DNA of 25,419 bases from a virus (IMGVR_UViG_3300035531_000116:1-25419); one strand, 5' to 3'. Shown: positions 1-12,525, counted from the first letter of the stretch. A program made the numbers and translations. Notes: generated by a model not told the origin, from the letters alone.

Positions 1-51
1 ATGCGGCACACATGCCCATGGGGCACATGCACAACAAAAAATAGCGAAAAC

Positions 52-72
52 TTGCCACAAAAGAGGTGGCAA
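52..72 (-). terminator. Candidate intrinsic terminator downstream of the RT gene
   Basis: TTGCCAC-N7-GTGGCAA inverted repeat, followed on the minus strand by GTTTTCGCTATTTTTTG. Confidence 0.45.
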
Positions 73-145
73 AAAGAACCCCGGACAATAGCATTGCACT
101 GCAAAGGGCTGTTTTCTTCAAATTCACTGTAACGCGTTACGTAAT

Positions 146-1213
146 CTAAGATTTTCTTTCACGCAATATCATATTTTTATTTTTTCTCCGTGCGCTTTTG
201 AAGACCGTATTACACAGGATGCCCTTGCGTAAATTATCTGTATTTGCATGGCATGCATGGGCGGTCCATGAAGCTATTGTGGCGTTGACTTTTTCGATTG
301 TTATCATATTGCGTGCGTACTGCCAACGCATAGTTTTTATTCTGCGTTTCATCCGTCTAACAGAATCCTTGCGCAGCAGGCGCTTATTCGCCCAAATTCT
401 GTAACCGAGGAAATTAATTCCCTTGCTGCTTGGCAGGACGCTTGCTTTGCTGAACTTTAGCCCCAGGCTTAAAAGCTTCGATTCAAACTCATCCTTTATA
501 TATAGCGCCTCCTCTTTGCTGCGCACCAGGACCACCATATCATCCATATAGCGGATATACCTTTTCAATCTTAGTTCTCTCTTCGCCCATTGATCTACCC
601 TATTCAGGACCAAATTGGCTATCCATTGGCTTGTTAGGTTGCCAACCGGGATGCCTACGGGGTCCGACTCATCCTGGCAGGCCGTGCTATCGATAATTAC
701 GTCCAATAAGGCAAGAACCTCATAACAGTGGATATAATCGCGGATCACCTCTTTTGCCAGCCTGTGCCGAATTGAAAAGAAATACTTGCTTACGTCCATC
801 TTTAGCACCCAGCATGTCCCGCTGGCCACCATCCCTTTCAACCATTTTTCCACTCGATTGGCCCCGGCGTGGGTTCCTTTCCCGGCCCTGCACGCATAGG
901 TGTCAAATATCATGGCTCTATCCCATATGGGGCCACAGACGTTACAAATGGCATGCTGGACCACTCGATCTCGGTATGGGGCTGCCAGGATCTCTCTCTT
1001 TTTGGGTTCATACACAACAAACGATCGGTATCTGCCCGGCTGATATGTATGCCACATTAATTCTATTTGGATTTTGCCCAGTTCCTCCCATAGATTCGTC
1101 TCGAAGTATGCAACATCCGGATTTGAGCGTTTACCCCGCCGTGCTAATTTATGTGCATGTATAAGATTTTGCCAATCGACTACATCTTCGATTAGAGCTT
1201 CGTGTTTCTCCAT
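146..1213 (-). CDS. DGR reverse transcriptase (355 aa)
   Basis: Motifs EPKKREI..PYRDRVVQHA, YACRAGKGTH, LKMDVSKYF, GIPVGNLTSQ (DGR-type SQ), YIRYMDD and FLGY. No maturase/endonuclease extension. RBS AAGGAG upstream of the ATG. Confidence 0.97.
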   Translation of the reverse strand: MEKHEALIEDVVDWQNLIHAHKLARRGKRSNPDVAYFETNLWEELGKIQIELMWHTYQPGRYRSFVVYEPKKREILAAPYRDRVVQHAICNVCGPIWDRAMIFDTYACRAGKGTHAGANRVEKWLKGMVASGTCWVLKMDVSKYFFSIRHRLAKEVIRDYIHCYEVLALLDVIIDSTACQDESDPVGIPVGNLTSQWIANLVLNRVDQWAKRELRLKRYIRYMDDMVVLVRSKEEALYIKDEFESKLLSLGLKFSKASVLPSSKGINFLGYRIWANKRLLRKDSVRRMKRRIKTMRWQYARNMITIEKVNATIASWTAHACHANTDNLRKGILCNTVFKSARRKNKNMILRERKS

Positions 1214-1379
1214 ACCGCTCCTTTCTAAAAATTAAGGCGTCCCGAAGGGGCTTTCGCGCCTCCGGGACTATCGTATTCGGCCCTTCCAGGTCCGGGATAA
1301 ACCGGCTGACCCCTTTGCTGGGATCATGGGTGACGGGGAACGCGTCCCCGCCCTCTCTGTGTTTATAATTCCGCCATGG
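1214..1379 (-). ncRNA. DGR TR-RT spacer with RNA hairpins (probable 3' part of the TR RNA)
   Basis: 166-nt non-coding gap. Minus-strand hairpin GTCCCGGAGGCGC-GAAA-GCCCCTTCGGGAC at 1239-1268 and a 6-bp stem at 1334-1350. Confidence 0.6.
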
Positions 1380-1509
1380 GTCACAGGCGCAACGCAGGCC
1401 AACGTTCCCGTTCGCGTTCCACGGGTTCGCGTTGGAGTTCAGACAGCGCGCACCGCAGTACGCCCCGTTGTTCCAAGTGCCACCACCAATGAAGGCCCGC
1501 CAATCAGCG
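1380..1509 (-). repeat. DGR template repeat (TR)
   Basis: Intergenic copy of 1904-2033. In the target frame it reads ADWRAFIGGGTWNNGAYCGARCLNSNANPWNANGNVGLRCACD, with 8 AAC codons and 21 adenines. Confidence 0.97.
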
Positions 1510-1535
1510 CCAAAACCCGGCTCACCCCATAAATA

Positions 1536-1898
1536 TTAACAATGAAGCTTTTTCCGCCATGCTCCGATCATCGCACCGATTTCTGATAATTGCCGGCTGG
1601 CCGCGCCGACATGCTTGGGCCGTATTAGTTGGTTCTCGGCTGCGAAGCGCAGCAGGGCGTACAGATATCGCACCTGCTCATCTGCTCTATACACCTTGCT
1701 TTTCTGACTACTCATAGCCGCCTCAATTAAACACCTGACCAACAACCACAAGCTGTCTTCAAGCCGTGTCGCGAACCGATATCGTTGATATCGGGGGATT
1801 TTATTGATATGTGGCATCAAATAATTAGTCAATTGTTCCGCCTTGCTCAATACAACGAGCCCGCGCTGCCGCACGGGCCTTTCAGGGACCATGCTCAT
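1536..1898 (-). CDS. avd: Accessory variability determinant Avd (about 120 aa)
   Basis: Small basic helical protein with IPRYQRY..L and EIGAMIGAW, typical of Avd four-helix bundles; lies between target and TR. The ATG at 1898 overlaps the target stop (ATGA), so the ORF-track start at 2027 is over-extended. Confidence 0.9.
   Translation of the reverse strand: MSMVPERPVRQRGLVVLSKAEQLTNYLMPHINKIPRYQRYRFATRLEDSLWLLVRCLIEAAMSSQKSKVYRADEQVRYLYALLRFAAENQLIRPKHVGAASRQLSEIGAMIGAWRKKLHC
1859..1878 (-). promoter_or_regulatory. Candidate DGR target-recognition hairpin/cruciform downstream of VR
   Basis: Minus strand GCCCGTGC-GGCA-GCGCGGGC: 8-bp GC-rich stem with one T.G pair and a GRNA-type loop, 16 nt after the target stop codon. 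Confidence 0.65.
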
Positions 1899-2932
1899 AA
1901 GGCGCCACAGGCGCAACGCAGGCCAACGTGCCCGCCCGCGCCCCACGGGTGCGCGACGGAGCTCAGACAGCGCGCACCGCAGTACGCCCCGCCGTTCCAA
2001 GCGCCACCACCAATGAAGGCCCGCCAAGCAGCGTGATAAACAGCCCCCCTATAGTATGCAGCGTCTTTGCCGACATCCACCACCGAGGTAGACCAAGCAT
2101 AAGTATCACCCAGATCATGCTGGTCATCGAGCCAGTCCCACAAATTACCCGCCGCATCGATAATATTAAGCGTAGAAACAGCCTGAGCCACAGCGCCTGT
2201 GGTTGTCGGTCCGGTATTTGTCGTGGCAGCCCAAGCCGCAGTATTTGCGCTATCAGACCCTTGCGGAGCACCATCGGCGTACACGCAAAACTCACTAACC
2301 GTTGGCAGGCGCTTCCCGGCATTTCCGGCCAGTAGCCCGAAATCCGTCCTGGCATAGACATCATCCGTAATCGGGGTGACGCCGTACGCACTGACCGGCA
2401 CATTTTGCGGCCATATGCCGCTCCCCTCACTATTGTGATAAATATCCACCCACACAGCACCGGGTATAATTTCCGCCATCCCCACTGGGCTACACGTTGG
2501 CCGATGAGACAAGTCCCAAACGCTGTTCGGTACAATTTGAGTAGCCAGGGTCACAGACGTATCGTACCGATCCGCCACCTCCCGCACCCGGCCATAATGG
2601 TACCCGCCAATTTTCCGGCTTGTCAGCGATGAATATCCATCCGGGTACGTGCTGTTCAGGCTGGATATCACCCCGGCCCGCCCATCGCTGCCCGGGATCG
2701 CATACAAAGAGACATTATCTCCCAGCGCCAGCGAATCCAGCGTACCGTCTTGGTTGTCGGCGCTTGTCGGGTCCCAGTCCGCCCGCTCATTCAGGATATA
2801 CCCGCAACCGTTACCGCCGATATTCACTAAACCCTCCGGGATATTTAACGTGGATGCCGATGCCGCTGCAATTTGCCCCATTATTTGCCAGAATGCCGCC
2901 GCCCCTGCCGCAATTGCATACTTTACACTCAT
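1895..2932 (-). CDS. DGR target: Mtd-like receptor-binding protein with C-terminal CLec (FGE-like) fold (about 345 aa)
   Basis: Motifs RKIGGYHYG, GKRLPTVSEF, GNLWDW and GGAW...GLRC resemble the BPP-1 major tropism determinant; VR encodes the C-terminus. Start taken at MSVKY (2932), just after the upstream stop. Confidence 0.9.
   Translation of the reverse strand: MSVKYAIAAGAAAFWQIMGQIAAASASTLNIPEGLVNIGGNGCGYILNERADWDPTSADNQDGTLDSLALGDNVSLYAIPGSDGRAGVISSLNSTYPDGYSSLTSRKIGGYHYGRVREVADRYDTSVTLATQIVPNSVWDLSHRPTCSPVGMAEIIPGAVWVDIYHNSEGSGIWPQNVPVSAYGVTPITDDVYARTDFGLLAGNAGKRLPTVSEFCVYADGAPQGSDSANTAAWAATTNTGPTTTGAVAQAVSTLNIIDAAGNLWDWLDDQHDLGDTYAWSTSVVDVGKDAAYYRGAVYHAAWRAFIGGGAWNGGAYCGARCLSSVAHPWGAGGHVGLRCACGAL
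1904..2033 (-). repeat. DGR variable repeat (VR) at the 3' end of the target gene
   Basis: Aligns gap-free to TR at offset 524 with 14 mismatches, each at a TR adenine. Ends in an adenine-free GC-rich tract (GTTGGCCTGCGTTGCGCCTGTG), after which TR and VR diverge (IMH/IMH*-like). Confidence 0.97.
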
Positions 2933-2933
2933 T

Positions 2934-3287
2934 TTACACACCCAACTCATTCAGCACGGACATTTTTACCTCAACCTCATCAGCCGTAAAGCATAGTAAC
3001 ACCATCCGGCATGCATCATCTTCAACCCGCCGGTATTGTTTGCGCACCTCATCTCCGGACGATTCATCCAGAGACGTTAAAACGATATACTCGGGGGACT
3101 CACCATCCGCCTCATCATCGTCCGAAAGCGTTTTATCGTAATCATATTTATACCTGCCGTTCAGCAAACCCTGCCAGTGCGCTTGCAGCGTAGTTCTTTC
3201 CGACTTGCTTAACCTCCCAGCCACAGCCATATCCTGCAATAATTCAAAATCGGCCCGCGTCAGCAGGCCTTTGGGAACTCCCTGCAT
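2934..3287 (-). CDS. Hypothetical protein (117 aa), possible fibre/receptor-binding protein adaptor
   Basis: GGAGG RBS; packed between the fibre stub and the DGR target; no recognised motif. Confidence 0.7.
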   Translation of the reverse strand: MQGVPKGLLTRADFELLQDMAVAGRLSKSERTTLQAHWQGLLNGRYKYDYDKTLSDDDEADGESPEYIVLTSLDESSGDEVRKQYRRVEDDACRMVLLCFTADEVEVKMSVLNELGV

Positions 3288-3306
3288 AATTTAATCCTCC
3301 TTTGGG

Positions 3307-3549
3307 TTATTCTTCTATATCAACCGTACACACCGCCACGCCATCAACCAACTCAAATACACGGCCTTGAAGCAACCCGCCGAGCTGCGCATTATTTTCT
3401 GAGTCCAGCTCCACCCCAAGCATTTCAATGGCCTGGGCAACCTCCTCCTGGAGCGCATACAGCCAGGCCGCCGTCACCCGGGTACCCTTGGTGCCTGTGG
3501 ACGCATCCCCATCCGTAAATGTGCCGTCATCCGTGTCTATTCTCTGCAT
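3307..3549 (-). CDS. Short tail-fibre N-terminal (baseplate-anchoring) domain protein (80 aa)
   Basis: MQRID...FTDGD..TG...T.V.A.W..ALQEEV..AIE..G..L.....QL matches the N-terminus of Mu-like/SfV-like tail fibres; AGGAGG RBS; follows the gp48-like gene. Confidence 0.75.
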   Translation of the reverse strand: MQRIDTDDGTFTDGDASTGTKGTRVTAAWLYALQEEVAQAIEMLGVELDSENNAQLGGLLQGRVFELVDGVAVCTVDIEE

Positions 3550-3557
3550 ATATCCTC

Positions 3558-4118
3558 CTAAAAATTAGGGTAGGTGAAAAACACCAAAGTCTCTGCGGGT
3601 TTTAAATCTTCGAATATGGTTTCCAGATCATCCACACCGAAATCGGCCAAACGATCTCCGGCCCCGTTGGTGCCCGCGTAAAAATAATATCCCGGGATCT
3701 CAGTATTGAGCACGTTGGCCCACCAAGCATAGACAATGTTTTCATCATTCAACTTATCCCCTGCGCAGGACCACCCAGCCATGAACTCTGTGGGCTCCTC
3801 GATCTCAACGTCATACCCTAACATCTCTGCCAACGCGATAAAGTGCGGCCTGGATAAGCCCCCCTTAGCCCGGATCTTTGCAAGCAGCGCCGCCACACGC
3901 ACGCCCGTGCTGGCATCCGCATCAGGCGTCAGCCCATAAACCCGCTCCCAGGCCGACAACAGCTCATAGCAAGTGTCAGGGAAAATATTAACAAAAACCC
4001 GGTCCGCAGAATCCTGGGCACGATCCAACGCCTTGGCCTCGGTTTCCATGTCCATGTCGGCAACATCACCAAGCCGAACAGGAGTCAAATACCGCAGTGT
4101 TTTAGAGTTTTGTTGCAC
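3558..4118 (-). CDS. Baseplate protein, Mu gp48/YmfQ (DUF2313)-like
   Basis: FPDT..ELLSAWERVYGL, GGLSRPHFIALAEMLGY and LKPAET; follows baseplate J. Confidence 0.85.
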   Translation of the reverse strand: MQQNSKTLRYLTPVRLGDVADMDMETEAKALDRAQDSADRVFVNIFPDTCYELLSAWERVYGLTPDADASTGVRVAALLAKIRAKGGLSRPHFIALAEMLGYDVEIEEPTEFMAGWSCAGDKLNDENIVYAWWANVLNTEIPGYYFYAGTNGAGDRLADFGVDDLETIFEDLKPAETLVFFTYPNF

Positions 4119-4887
4119 TGATCGTCCCCGCTACAATCCGTTGATAATCCGTCACACTGACATTTGTGGCCGGAGCGGAAAGCGGTGTCGGTACATCTGT
4201 CAAATCATTGCCCTCGATTAAGTATTTGGTCAGCTGGGAGATAACCAAATCATCCCCCGGACCAAATCCTGCCAAGTATGCCGCCACATCGTCCTCAATC
4301 ACCGCCTCCTCCACATCGCCCTCATAGGCCAGGGTGATATCGACCGAAACGTCAACAGGGGCCAACACCCTTAAATACCGCATCCCCGCCGGCCGCCGCT
4401 CATCAATATAATCGGTCACCACATCGATCAGATCCTGATCCGGCACCCCCGTCTCATTATCCGCAGTAATCACAACATCAACAGATCCAAGCCCCTGGCC
4501 GAGCGGAACACTCCAGGCATCCGCCACCCCGTCCACCGCCCTGGCCCATTTTTCATAATCATATTGATTACCACCCGCAGGCGGCCGCCGCCGGTCGTCC
4601 AGATCCCGGGAAAGCAGCGACGCATCGGACTCATCGACCTTGCGGTCAATCCCGTTGATATAGGCGTGGTGTTCCATATTTTCCGGATCTGCCGTATCCG
4701 GAAAAATCTGATCCGATATCCACGCCTGATACCGGTATATGCCCCACAACGCCGACGCCGTACACGCAGCCCTTATATAAAGGATAGTCCCCTTGCTCGT
4801 ATCCGCATCGGGAAACTGCCCCCGGTAATCCACCAGGATCTGGTTAAGGATCTGGTCAAAATATTTGAGCCACACACTGTCCATCAC
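4102..4887 (-). CDS. Baseplate J-like wedge protein (Mu gp47-like), short form (261 aa)
   Basis: QIFPDTAD..E.HA...GI.RK, ESDASL..R, PPAGGNQYDYEKWARAVDGV and G.GSVDV. Confidence 0.88.
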   Translation of the reverse strand: MMDSVWLKYFDQILNQILVDYRGQFPDADTSKGTILYIRAACTASALWGIYRYQAWISDQIFPDTADPENMEHHAYINGIDRKVDESDASLLSRDLDDRRRPPAGGNQYDYEKWARAVDGVADAWSVPLGQGLGSVDVVITADNETGVPDQDLIDVVTDYIDERRPAGMRYLRVLAPVDVSVDITLAYEGDVEEAVIEDDVAAYLAGFGPGDDLVISQLTKYLIEGNDLTDVPTPLSAPATNVSVTDYQRIVAGTISATKL

Positions 4888-8198: not shown

Positions 8199-9395
8199 TT
8201 ATAGGACAAGGGCACTCTGGCTCATTCCACTCCCACCGATAACGAGCTGTGGGGTAACGCCACCAGCCCCCTCAAGCACTGTCACGCCTGCCTTGGGGGT
8301 AAACTGCGTTATGTTGCCGACAAGCCTAACTGTGATCGATTCGGCATCAGTTTCATTTAAGGCCGACATGTCAACATGCCCACCAACACCGCTAAATGTT
8401 ATCGTATCCCCGGCAGTCAGCAGATCACTTGCAGCTGTATAGTCCTCGCCGGCAGTCAGCATTATCGAGATGTGATTGTTAGGTGCTGTAACGCCTATTA
8501 ACGCGTCAACGGCATTAGCGTATAGCCCACCAATGACCGTGTAGCCAGCCCCGTTTGGGTGCAGTCCGTCGCCAGAGTCATACGCTGTCGCTAAATCTAA
8601 TGATCCCTCGGACTCTGCCAGCGCTGTGTAAATATCAACGTATTGCAGTCCCATGCCAGCCGCATACGACTGCAACCACATATTGTATTCTTCCGTCCAG
8701 GTCTGCCGCTCTGCCGTCCAGTATTGATTGTGTGACCAGGGGGCAACATTAACCAATATGGGCAGTATTTTAGCCGTCCGTGCGGCCGCAACCATTGATT
8801 GTATTGACGCTTGCATGGAGGCCAATGGACTTGATACTGCCGCCGCAAGATTGTTTACACCGCCTTGGATGATAACTATCTCAGGATTATTAGCGACAAT
8901 ATCAGCATTAAAGCGCGCGGCTATTGAATGCAGCGCTTCGCCCGAGGCCCCCTTTGTCGTTACTGTCATGCCTGTTATTTCGCTAAGCTCGGTATCCGCT
9001 GATCCATTCGCTGTAAACGAATCCCCGATGATATAGGTAGGACGGTCAACAATAGTTTCGCAACGGAACTCAGTAAACGTCAAAACGTCACCACCACTGC
9101 CTGAATACATACTCACCATTAGGGACGTTCTTTCTGCTGTGAACGACCTACTGCCAAAGCCAGAAAGAAAAATAGGCGTATTGTCCGCGTCCCGAATATC
9201 AAACGCGCACCCTGGGGTTATTGCCCCATCTGTATAAAGCCGATATTTTTCACTAACTGTTAGCGGAGTCGGTGGCTCACCGTACATATAGCCGTTTCCA
9301 TCAACCCCCGTCTCAAAAGAATTTGCTGTAACATTTACGGCCCCTAGCCCAGCCGTCCACGTCGTAAAATCATAACCGGCCATTAAGTCAGTCAT
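8199..9395 (-). CDS. SGNH/GDSL hydrolase (esterase/deacetylase) with extra N- and C-terminal domains (398 aa)
   Basis: All four blocks visible: GDSFT (Ser), GASGE (Gly), QGGVNN (Asn), DGLHPN (Asp/His). Confidence 0.88.
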   Translation of the reverse strand: MTDLMAGYDFTTWTAGLGAVNVTANSFETGVDGNGYMYGEPPTPLTVSEKYRLYTDGAITPGCAFDIRDADNTPIFLSGFGSRSFTAERTSLMVSMYSGSGGDVLTFTEFRCETIVDRPTYIIGDSFTANGSADTELSEITGMTVTTKGASGEALHSIAARFNADIVANNPEIVIIQGGVNNLAAAVSSPLASMQASIQSMVAAARTAKILPILVNVAPWSHNQYWTAERQTWTEEYNMWLQSYAAGMGLQYVDIYTALAESEGSLDLATAYDSGDGLHPNGAGYTVIGGLYANAVDALIGVTAPNNHISIMLTAGEDYTAASDLLTAGDTITFSGVGGHVDMSALNETDAESITVRLVGNITQFTPKAGVTVLEGAGGVTPQLVIGGSGMSQSALVL

Positions 9396-12105: not shown

Positions 12106-12525
12106 TTAATCATTTCGAAGCTGCAGCACCCGGCAGCTGCCGGAGCCGGTCACCAGGAATCGTTTAGTCCGTCTGTCTGTTTCAAATAAAAAAATACCGT
12201 CCGACTTCTGGTGATCTCTCAGCACCGGCACAGATCCATCATGATTGCGGTGTACCGTCACCATGTCCGTGATCTGCAAAATCAACACCAGCCGGGTTGC
12301 CGGATCAACCGTAACAGCCTGCGGGGATGAACTTAGCCCGGTCAGGACATCGTCAGACACCTCCCGCTCATAGTACGGGGTCTCACTGTCCATGGTGAGG
12401 CCCAGGGTCTCATGATCGCAAAAATACACCGTTTCCATTGTCTTACCTGGCTTAAGTTCCTCAAGGTCCCCCTGGGAATTTTCGATAAAAACGACGTTGC
12501 TTGTCCCGTTTGTATACGTAGACAT
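12106..12525 (-). CDS. Hypothetical protein (139 aa) between sheath and tube
   Basis: GGAGG RBS; fills the sheath-tube gap; no recognised motif. Confidence 0.7.
   Translation of the reverse strand: MSTYTNGTSNVVFIENSQGDLEELKPGKTMETVYFCDHETLGLTMDSETPYYEREVSDDVLTGLSSSPQAVTVDPATRLVLILQITDMVTVHRNHDGSVPVLRDHQKSDGIFLFETDRRTKRFLVTGSGSCRVLQLRND

Follow-up and report, generated by a model that had tools for sequence, protein, structure and literature searches.

The closest described relatives of the locus analysed here, a diversity-generating retroelement (DGR) in the virus record IMGVR_UViG_3300035531_000116, are the DGRs of Bordetella phage BPP-1 and of the cultured Mu-like Chromohalobacter myophage YPCBV-1 (OP380511; PMC9769972). 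The record, a single stretch of 25,419 bases referred to below as the window, carries all DGR parts on its minus strand, in the order target gene with its variable repeat (VR), avd, template repeat (TR) and reverse transcriptase (RT). The same order is found in BPP-1 (mtd-avd-TR-brt; architecture B1 in the accessible part of Wu et al., PMC5758913). We read the element as a BPP-1-type DGR, the terminal module of a Mu-like contractile-tailed prophage. Its VR varies almost only at sites that are adenines in TR, and the element likely rewrites the receptor-binding face of its target so that progeny attach to changed host surfaces. The probability assigned to this reading is about 0.88.

Besides gene order, the window shares with BPP-1 the RT motif, the spA56 priming motif, the TGTG boundary, the initiation of mutagenic homing elements (IMH and IMH*), a GRNA-loop hairpin, the Mtd fold and the register of the variable codons. 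It differs from BPP-1, a non-Mu-like phage with a tRNA integration site, in the sequences of the RT (40% identical) and target (29% identical), in the position of the hairpin inside avd, and in lacking both the N-terminal region of BPP-1 Mtd and the GC-only 14-mer. In YPCBV-1, the same right-end module is present gene for gene, comprising gp46-47-48, a 90-aa anchor, a 116-aa protein, a 349-aa Mtd-like target, avd, TR, and RT. Identities to the window are 67% for the RT, 65% for Avd, 54% for the target, and 41% for the 117-aa protein, and the YPCBV-1 repeats show 14 TR/VR mismatches in 126 positions, every one at an A. The host of YPCBV-1 differs, being gammaproteobacterial, and its head and tail genes are about 25–42% identical to those of the window. 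The available part of the YPCBV-1 description notes avd and the RT, describes the target as a non-heme iron enzyme, and mentions neither TR/VR nor activity (PMC9769972). This target, ORF53 (OP380511, 33159-34208), was published as a SUMF1/EgtB auxiliary metabolic enzyme; it holds the VR (34074-34199; TR 34591-34716) and is the DGR target. An initial sequence-only reading of the window had placed part of its novelty in the architecture, a claim left unsupported by the identical gene order in YPCBV-1.

That reading had also stated that DGRs occur in some transposable phages, and several further systems agree with it. The hankyphage is reportedly a transposable phage with a DGR. Mushu is a Mu-like phage for which the accessible text describes a DGR with read-based activity and a Hoc-like target (PMC5883640). 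BalMu-1 (NC_030945) has an annotated DGR with an FGE-type tail target; its RT belongs to a different clade, and lysis genes follow the RT gene. The group B prophages of Desulfovibrio piger carry, in the portion of the report available, a DGR with Mu-like genes and FGE-type tail targets (PMC12724379).

Comparison of TR with VR (offset 524) reproduced the 14 mismatches in 130 positions reported in the sequence-only reading, all at TR adenines and without indels. TR contains 21 adenines, and the hypergeometric chance of mismatches confined to adenines is 5e-14. One of the 14 is better explained otherwise. In BPP-1, copying begins at TR G117, and TR118-119 form pairs with spacer primer bases spA56/spC55 (PMC5703328). 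G117 corresponds to window position 1384 and BPP-1 TR120 to TR A1381 (VR 1905), so A1381 would remain uncopied and could itself pair with the spacer primer. Position 1905 was constant in the four runs examined, and its codon encodes Gly in each of the 8 other targets compared. Position 1905 was therefore rejected as a variable site and assigned to the IMH/IMH* difference outside the copied segment, which leaves 13 mismatches, 20 mutable adenines, and 12 variable codons. The diversity calculated initially (4.4e12 DNA variants and 2.62e12 proteins, no stop codons) could be reproduced arithmetically and is about four-fold too high, as 1905 is not copied; the corrected capacity is 1.1e12 DNA variants and 6.6e11 protein variants.

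Natural alleles carry the evidence for activity. A near-identical copy of the phage (L001) differs from the window at 14 positions in 7,087 bp, all of them VR sites that are A in TR, and TR itself is identical. Over 11,395 bp, only 3 differences fall outside those VR sites, a background that predicts 0.006 changes at VR TR-A sites compared to the 14 observed. The cluster of target proteins at 90% identity has seven members, which together with the window represent six alleles and one sequence from a diverged strain. The six alleles are identical in protein sequence outside the variable codons, and all changes can be reached by adenine-only mutagenesis with the exception of Tyr317His (P0001) and Val336Ala (the diverged P0126). 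The next comparison covered 1300-2400 in four metagenome runs and used contigs, in which rare variants are lost. The sequence-only reading had expected variation restricted to TR-adenine positions, and this held for 19 of the 20 VR places that vary; the remaining one (1984) lies beside an adenine. The sole other varying place, 1472, is read as a VR fragment placed on TR. Two or three alleles occur side by side in single runs, and the same few recur across runs X1, X14, X17, and X19 (table read by hand). Run X22 has no cover over the VR, run X24 contains nearly no phage sequence, and an exact search for the target gene in metagenome contigs gave 0 matches. Recent activity of the DGR is shown by alleles whose differences fall almost exclusively at TR adenines, and the description of the element as apparently functional is upheld. 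Recent activity is common, having been found in 50-75% of surveyed DGRs according to the accessible part of Roux et al. (bioRxiv 2020.04.01.020958). As a separate observation, P0124 equals the window allele save for the two 5'-most variable codons (2014, 2028), a pattern suggestive of mosaic alleles or partial homing tracts.

The enzyme of the element groups with DGR RTs. Among solved structures it matches PDB 8ub7 chain A best (328 aa; E 2e-62, compared to 6e-18 for a group II RT), which we take to be the BPP-1 RT, bRT. VGNLTSQ fits the [IVL]GxxxSQ pattern of DGR RTs and YMDD is an intact YxDD. Residue R73 corresponds to bRT R74, and the DGR RT motif together with an R74-type residue promotes adenine mutagenesis according to the available text of bioRxiv 2020.04.29.068544. 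In a tree of 27 rows, which included five group II RTs and no retron RT, the enzyme was placed with the RTs of BPP-1, Lagaffe, and YPCBV-1 and was split from the group II RTs at 100/100, in line with what the sequence-only reading had anticipated. The best NCBIfam match is TIGR04416 (group II RT), at 119.9 bits against a cutoff of 300, and the retron profile NF038233 scored 42.4 bits against a cutoff of 235. A group II intron RT was ruled out by the tree, by the score below the TIGR04416 cutoff, and by the motifs VGNLTSQ and YMDD in place of QGxxxSP and YADD; a retron RT was ruled out by the NF038233 score.

The remaining parts of a BPP-1-type element are also present (Table 1), so that the DGR is complete as first proposed, with RT, avd, and target as open frames where they had been placed. 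Avd matches PF22296 with 70.3 bits (cutoff 40) and NF033474 with 99.6 bits (cutoff 80). In the TR-RT spacer, the motif TCAGCC is invariant in 13 of 13 aligned spacers, the site shares a 12-nt identity with BPP-1, and a 6-bp pairing is possible between it and the 3' end of TR. A priming role of the spacer has been described for BPP-1 (PMC5703328, in the part available), and the sequence of the window spacer points to a cis-priming site. The hairpin past the VR consists of an 8-bp stem with one T-G mismatch and a GGCA loop of the GRNA type. GRNA-loop stems of 5–9 perfect pairs occur in 10 of 10 close relatives, and such a hairpin after the VR is required in a BPP-1-type DGR according to the accessible portion of PMC3240598. 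One close relative, L007 (5567-5816; identical to L099), lacks the greater part of avd together with the 5' region of TR, which leaves a repeat of only 95 bp, and retains VR, hairpin, and RT; its DGR is probably disabled.

The target is an Mtd-like protein. Its Pfam matches are mtd_2nd and FGE-sulfatase, and Mtd structures were matched at E 2e-14. The predicted model (pLDDT 95.8) has an Mtd-like fold, with Mtd as the best Foldseek match (TM 0.72, E 2e-20). Ten of the 12 variable codons align without gaps with BPP-1 Mtd codons templated by TR adenines. Two small genes lie upstream of the target: the 117-aa gene, and one of 80 aa that encodes only a tail-fibre N-terminus. This anchor domain is fused to an Mtd-like protein in L022, P0019, P0036, P0090, and P0113, which supports a place for the target on the baseplate. 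Within the tail module, a survey of open reading frames (ORFs) with Pfam and PHROG revealed no further long tail-fibre gene. The target is thus likely receptor-binding by analogy with Mtd, and the Mtd homology and natural anchor fusions suggest that the DGR may serve receptor or tropism switching.

Table 1. Features of the DGR and its surroundings in the 25,419-base window
Feature	Position	Strand	Remarks
Host DNA flanking prophage	1..127	none	L001 and L161 match the window only inward of 127/128
Phage right end	128..145	none	begins TG read from outside; 1 base uncertain
DGR RT, 355 aa	146..1213	-	RVT_1; R73, VGNLTSQ at 190, YMDD at 222
TR-RT spacer RNA	1214..1379	-	TCAGCC at 1309-1304; predicted priming adenine 1307 (BPP-1 spA56)
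TR	1380..1509	-	predicted copied part 1384-1509, 20 adenines; IMH* from 1381
avd, 120 aa, pI 10.3	1536..1898	-	start overlaps target stop (ATGA)
GC-rich DNA hairpin	1859..1878	-	inside avd, 25 nt past VR
IMH side of target	1895..1905	-	parts from IMH* directly after TGTG, like BPP-1
Target, Mtd-like, 345 aa	1895..2932	-	beta-sandwich and FGE-type C-type lectin; PF21916, PF03781
VR	1904..2033	-	in frame at target 3' end
Variable codons	302, 307, 311, 313, 314, 317, 324, 326, 328, 331, 333, 335		codons of the 345-aa target
117-aa acidic protein, unnamed family	2934..3287	-	accompanies Mtd-type genes
Tail-fibre N-terminal (baseplate anchor) domain, 80 aa, separate gene	3307..3549	-	PHROG tail-fibre N-termini

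The assignment to a Mu-like contractile-tailed prophage, also made in the sequence-only reading, agrees with the gene content and the right end. Pfam and PHROG matches identified Mu-type terminase, portal, head, sheath, tube, and baseplate genes in the window. A contig overlapping the window at 99.93% over 10.3 kb (L167) encodes a 714-aa transposase-like protein with Mu DNA-binding matches and an rve match of 27.7 bits (below the cutoff), as well as an AAA ATPase (AAA_22), GemA, and Mor. With a transposase-like protein, an ATPase, and Mu-type early and late genes, the predicted proteins indicate a Mu-like transposable phage. Homology between the window and L001 stops at 127/128, and the flanking host DNA differs, so the two copies represent two insertion sites. 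A 3.5-kb contig in runs X15 and X16 carries positions 1-127 and continues without phage, as an empty site. Host DNA at 1-127 supports the prophage state. The terminal pattern TGTA.CGCG also begins the ends of YPCBV-1 and L002; a TG...CA-type end in variable host DNA was found for the right end only, with two flanks, one inside a host gene. The left end, beside which a 5-bp target duplication would be expected, was not found in contigs L167 and L172. The RT stop codon lies 18 bp inside the right end (about 63 bp in YPCBV-1), which makes the cassette the last module before the Mu right end. In Mu, the place occupied here by the DGR is taken by the invertible G segment, gin, and mom.

The identity of the host was assessed using the L161 flank, an interrupted hydrolase gene with 87% identity over 68 aa to a gene of a Desulfobacter genome; this was the best of 80 matches listed, the others having lower identity or less coverage. 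This match, the sole basis for the assignment, indicates that the host is likely Desulfobacter-like, and thus a probable sulfate reducer. The flank of the window itself had no exact match in genome contigs and none in Desulfobacter genome G001.

In BPP-1-type fashion, an RNA comprising avd, TR, and spacer would be made first. RT and Avd would then prime cDNA synthesis from spacer A1307 paired to TR 1383-1379 and copy from TR G1384 upstream while misreading adenines, as in BPP-1, for which the sequence elements are present here. The cDNA would replace the VR, guided by the IMH and the GRNA hairpin, both also present, such that up to 12 lectin-site residues change, as seen among the alleles. The protein would be mounted on the baseplate via the 80-aa anchor, possibly helped by the 117-aa protein, and selection on host binding would keep few alleles.

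Several observations weigh against this reading. Tyr317His at 1984 is a non-adenine change, present in a single allele, and the Val336Ala of the diverged P0126 is unreachable from the TR of the window. The hairpin stem contains one mismatch, and the 3' invariant tract is A-free and not GC-only. A promoter scan found 4 candidates compared to 3.7 expected by chance, none of which stood out. The allele evidence comes from contigs and speaks to recent and not ongoing activity; only a handful of alleles recur. Of the 23 runs with the phage, 22 are 2020 oil-field metagenomes, maybe from one campaign, and 11, X1 among them, may be the source of the window itself. Some of these points would fit an intact DGR that is currently silent, with the alleles as relics frozen in separate lysogen lineages at their own insertion sites. 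The recurrence of few alleles in X1, X14, X17, and X19 is consistent with such relics, as are the T-G mismatch in the hairpin and the fact that the window and L001 differ both in allele and in insertion site. We nevertheless consider a silent element unlikely, because 14 differences at TR-A sites against only 3 at other sites of about 11,300 imply very recent events and all cis elements are present, while few alleles are also expected of an active element under selection and contigs drop rare variants.

A second alternative concerns the function of the diversified protein, which could be a tail-borne auxiliary adhesin for biofilm, surface glycan, or particle binding and not a determinant of host range. 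A precedent exists in Mushu, whose Hoc-like DGR target was proposed to bind mucus (PMC5883640). Such a role appears improbable here: the protein is directly homologous to Mtd, its variable sites are in register, it is fused to the anchor in relatives, and no other long tail-fibre gene was found in its tail module. It was also considered whether the repeats and alleles could stem from an assembly artefact or plain TR-VR gene conversion, with the RT being a group II intron or retron enzyme. TIGR04416 as the best NCBIfam match and the VR fragment placed on TR would be in keeping with this explanation, but the former falls far short of its cutoff, the motifs are those of DGR RTs, and TR is invariant in L001. 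Conversion from TR is ruled out because it could not supply the C, G, and T that the alleles have at TR-A sites. Allele comparisons and the RT tree refute this explanation, and we assign it a negligible probability.

The 117-aa protein is acidic (pI 4.5), and its family comprises 204 clusters. No match was found in Pfam, PHROGs, or PDB sequences, and the Atlas gave no usable lead. A viral Foldseek search with its predicted model (pLDDT 93) returned two uncharacterised phage proteins only, with 1 of 500 counted matches at E <= 0.001. Its gene occurs together with Mtd-family genes. An Mtd-family gene is present at 17 of 164 RT loci. All but one of the 17 also contain the 117-aa gene (16 loci); the exception is BPP-1, for which no homologue was found in the 9 kb examined. 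The gene is present in none of the 147 RT loci without an Mtd-family gene, 85 of which hold at least 3 kb upstream. The 16 loci are not independent, because 15 of them, duplicates included, belong to one RT clade. Seven further loci of the family all carry Mtd-family genes, giving 23 of 23 located beside an Mtd-type gene. In six near-copies among the loci of this family (L263-L268, about 1568-4303), the RT continues in frame into a 117-family domain and no avd match was found; these DGRs have an Mtd-like target, TR, and RT, and their spacer lacks TCAGCC by eye. Four database proteins (P0202, P0217, P0235, and P0238) are also RT fusions to this domain. In 3 of 3 in-frame cases inspected, AAGGAG precedes the domain's own ATG, which suggests that the fused domain is probably also made as a separate protein. 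In another locus, L269 (2510-5499), a 96-aa 117-family gene lies between two Mtd-like genes that share a 300-bp repeat at 89%, with no RT within 4 kb.

The simplest interpretation of these associations, and one we moderately favour, is that the protein is a predicted assembly partner of Mtd, acting as a chaperone or adaptor. That it is instead a fifth component of Mtd-type DGR cassettes working with the RT is doubtful; if true, the domain might substitute for Avd or couple mutagenesis to the target. A search for 117-family neighbourhoods matched 0 of 401 genomes of the phylum of G001, in a search without a positive control, and P0217, P0249, P0196, and P0205 as queries gave no matches in other collections. 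In the accessible part of Wu et al. (PMC5758913), PAG1-4 are unlike the protein by eye and CH1 differs in length, in a comparison that did not include a profile test, and six short motifs of the family had 0 matches in the portion of the supplement available. A literature search for such an Mtd partner found nothing, as judged by the titles listed.

Other features lie outside the cassette. Between the tape-measure and DNA-circularisation genes, a region of lower GC content (8199-9395) encodes a 398-aa SGNH/GDSL hydrolase-like protein, and YPCBV-1 has an unrelated small gene at the same place. A 139-aa ORF (12106-12525) between the sheath and tube genes matched neither Pfam nor PHROG. The baseplate J protein gp47 (4102-4887) is 261 aa long compared to 350 in YPCBV-1, with an internal segment missing; the short form looks natural, since L007 has a similarly short one. 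Runs X15, X16, and X23 contain another element end that matches 128-179 (52 bp; 6 mismatches in X16) and has other flanks and other inside sequence. It could be either the left end of the phage or a sister element, and it suggests that the terminal site overlaps the last RT codons. In L093 (3855-16420), a Desulfobacterales DGR has a single TR (9017-9147), flanked on both sides by VR-like copies, four in all.

The known picture of DGRs is unchanged by this locus, as recent activity is common and YPCBV-1 carries the same module. What the window adds is a well-documented case of a DGR that was active recently in a transposable phage, sampled in oil fields and with a probable sulfate reducer as host. 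Its six natural binding-site alleles could help to identify the receptor. Ten close relatives carry the cassette on Mu-type, P2-type, and other tails (types assigned by eye from ORFs). For the attachment of Mtd-type modules to Mu-type and P2-type tails, the 117-aa family is a candidate partner.

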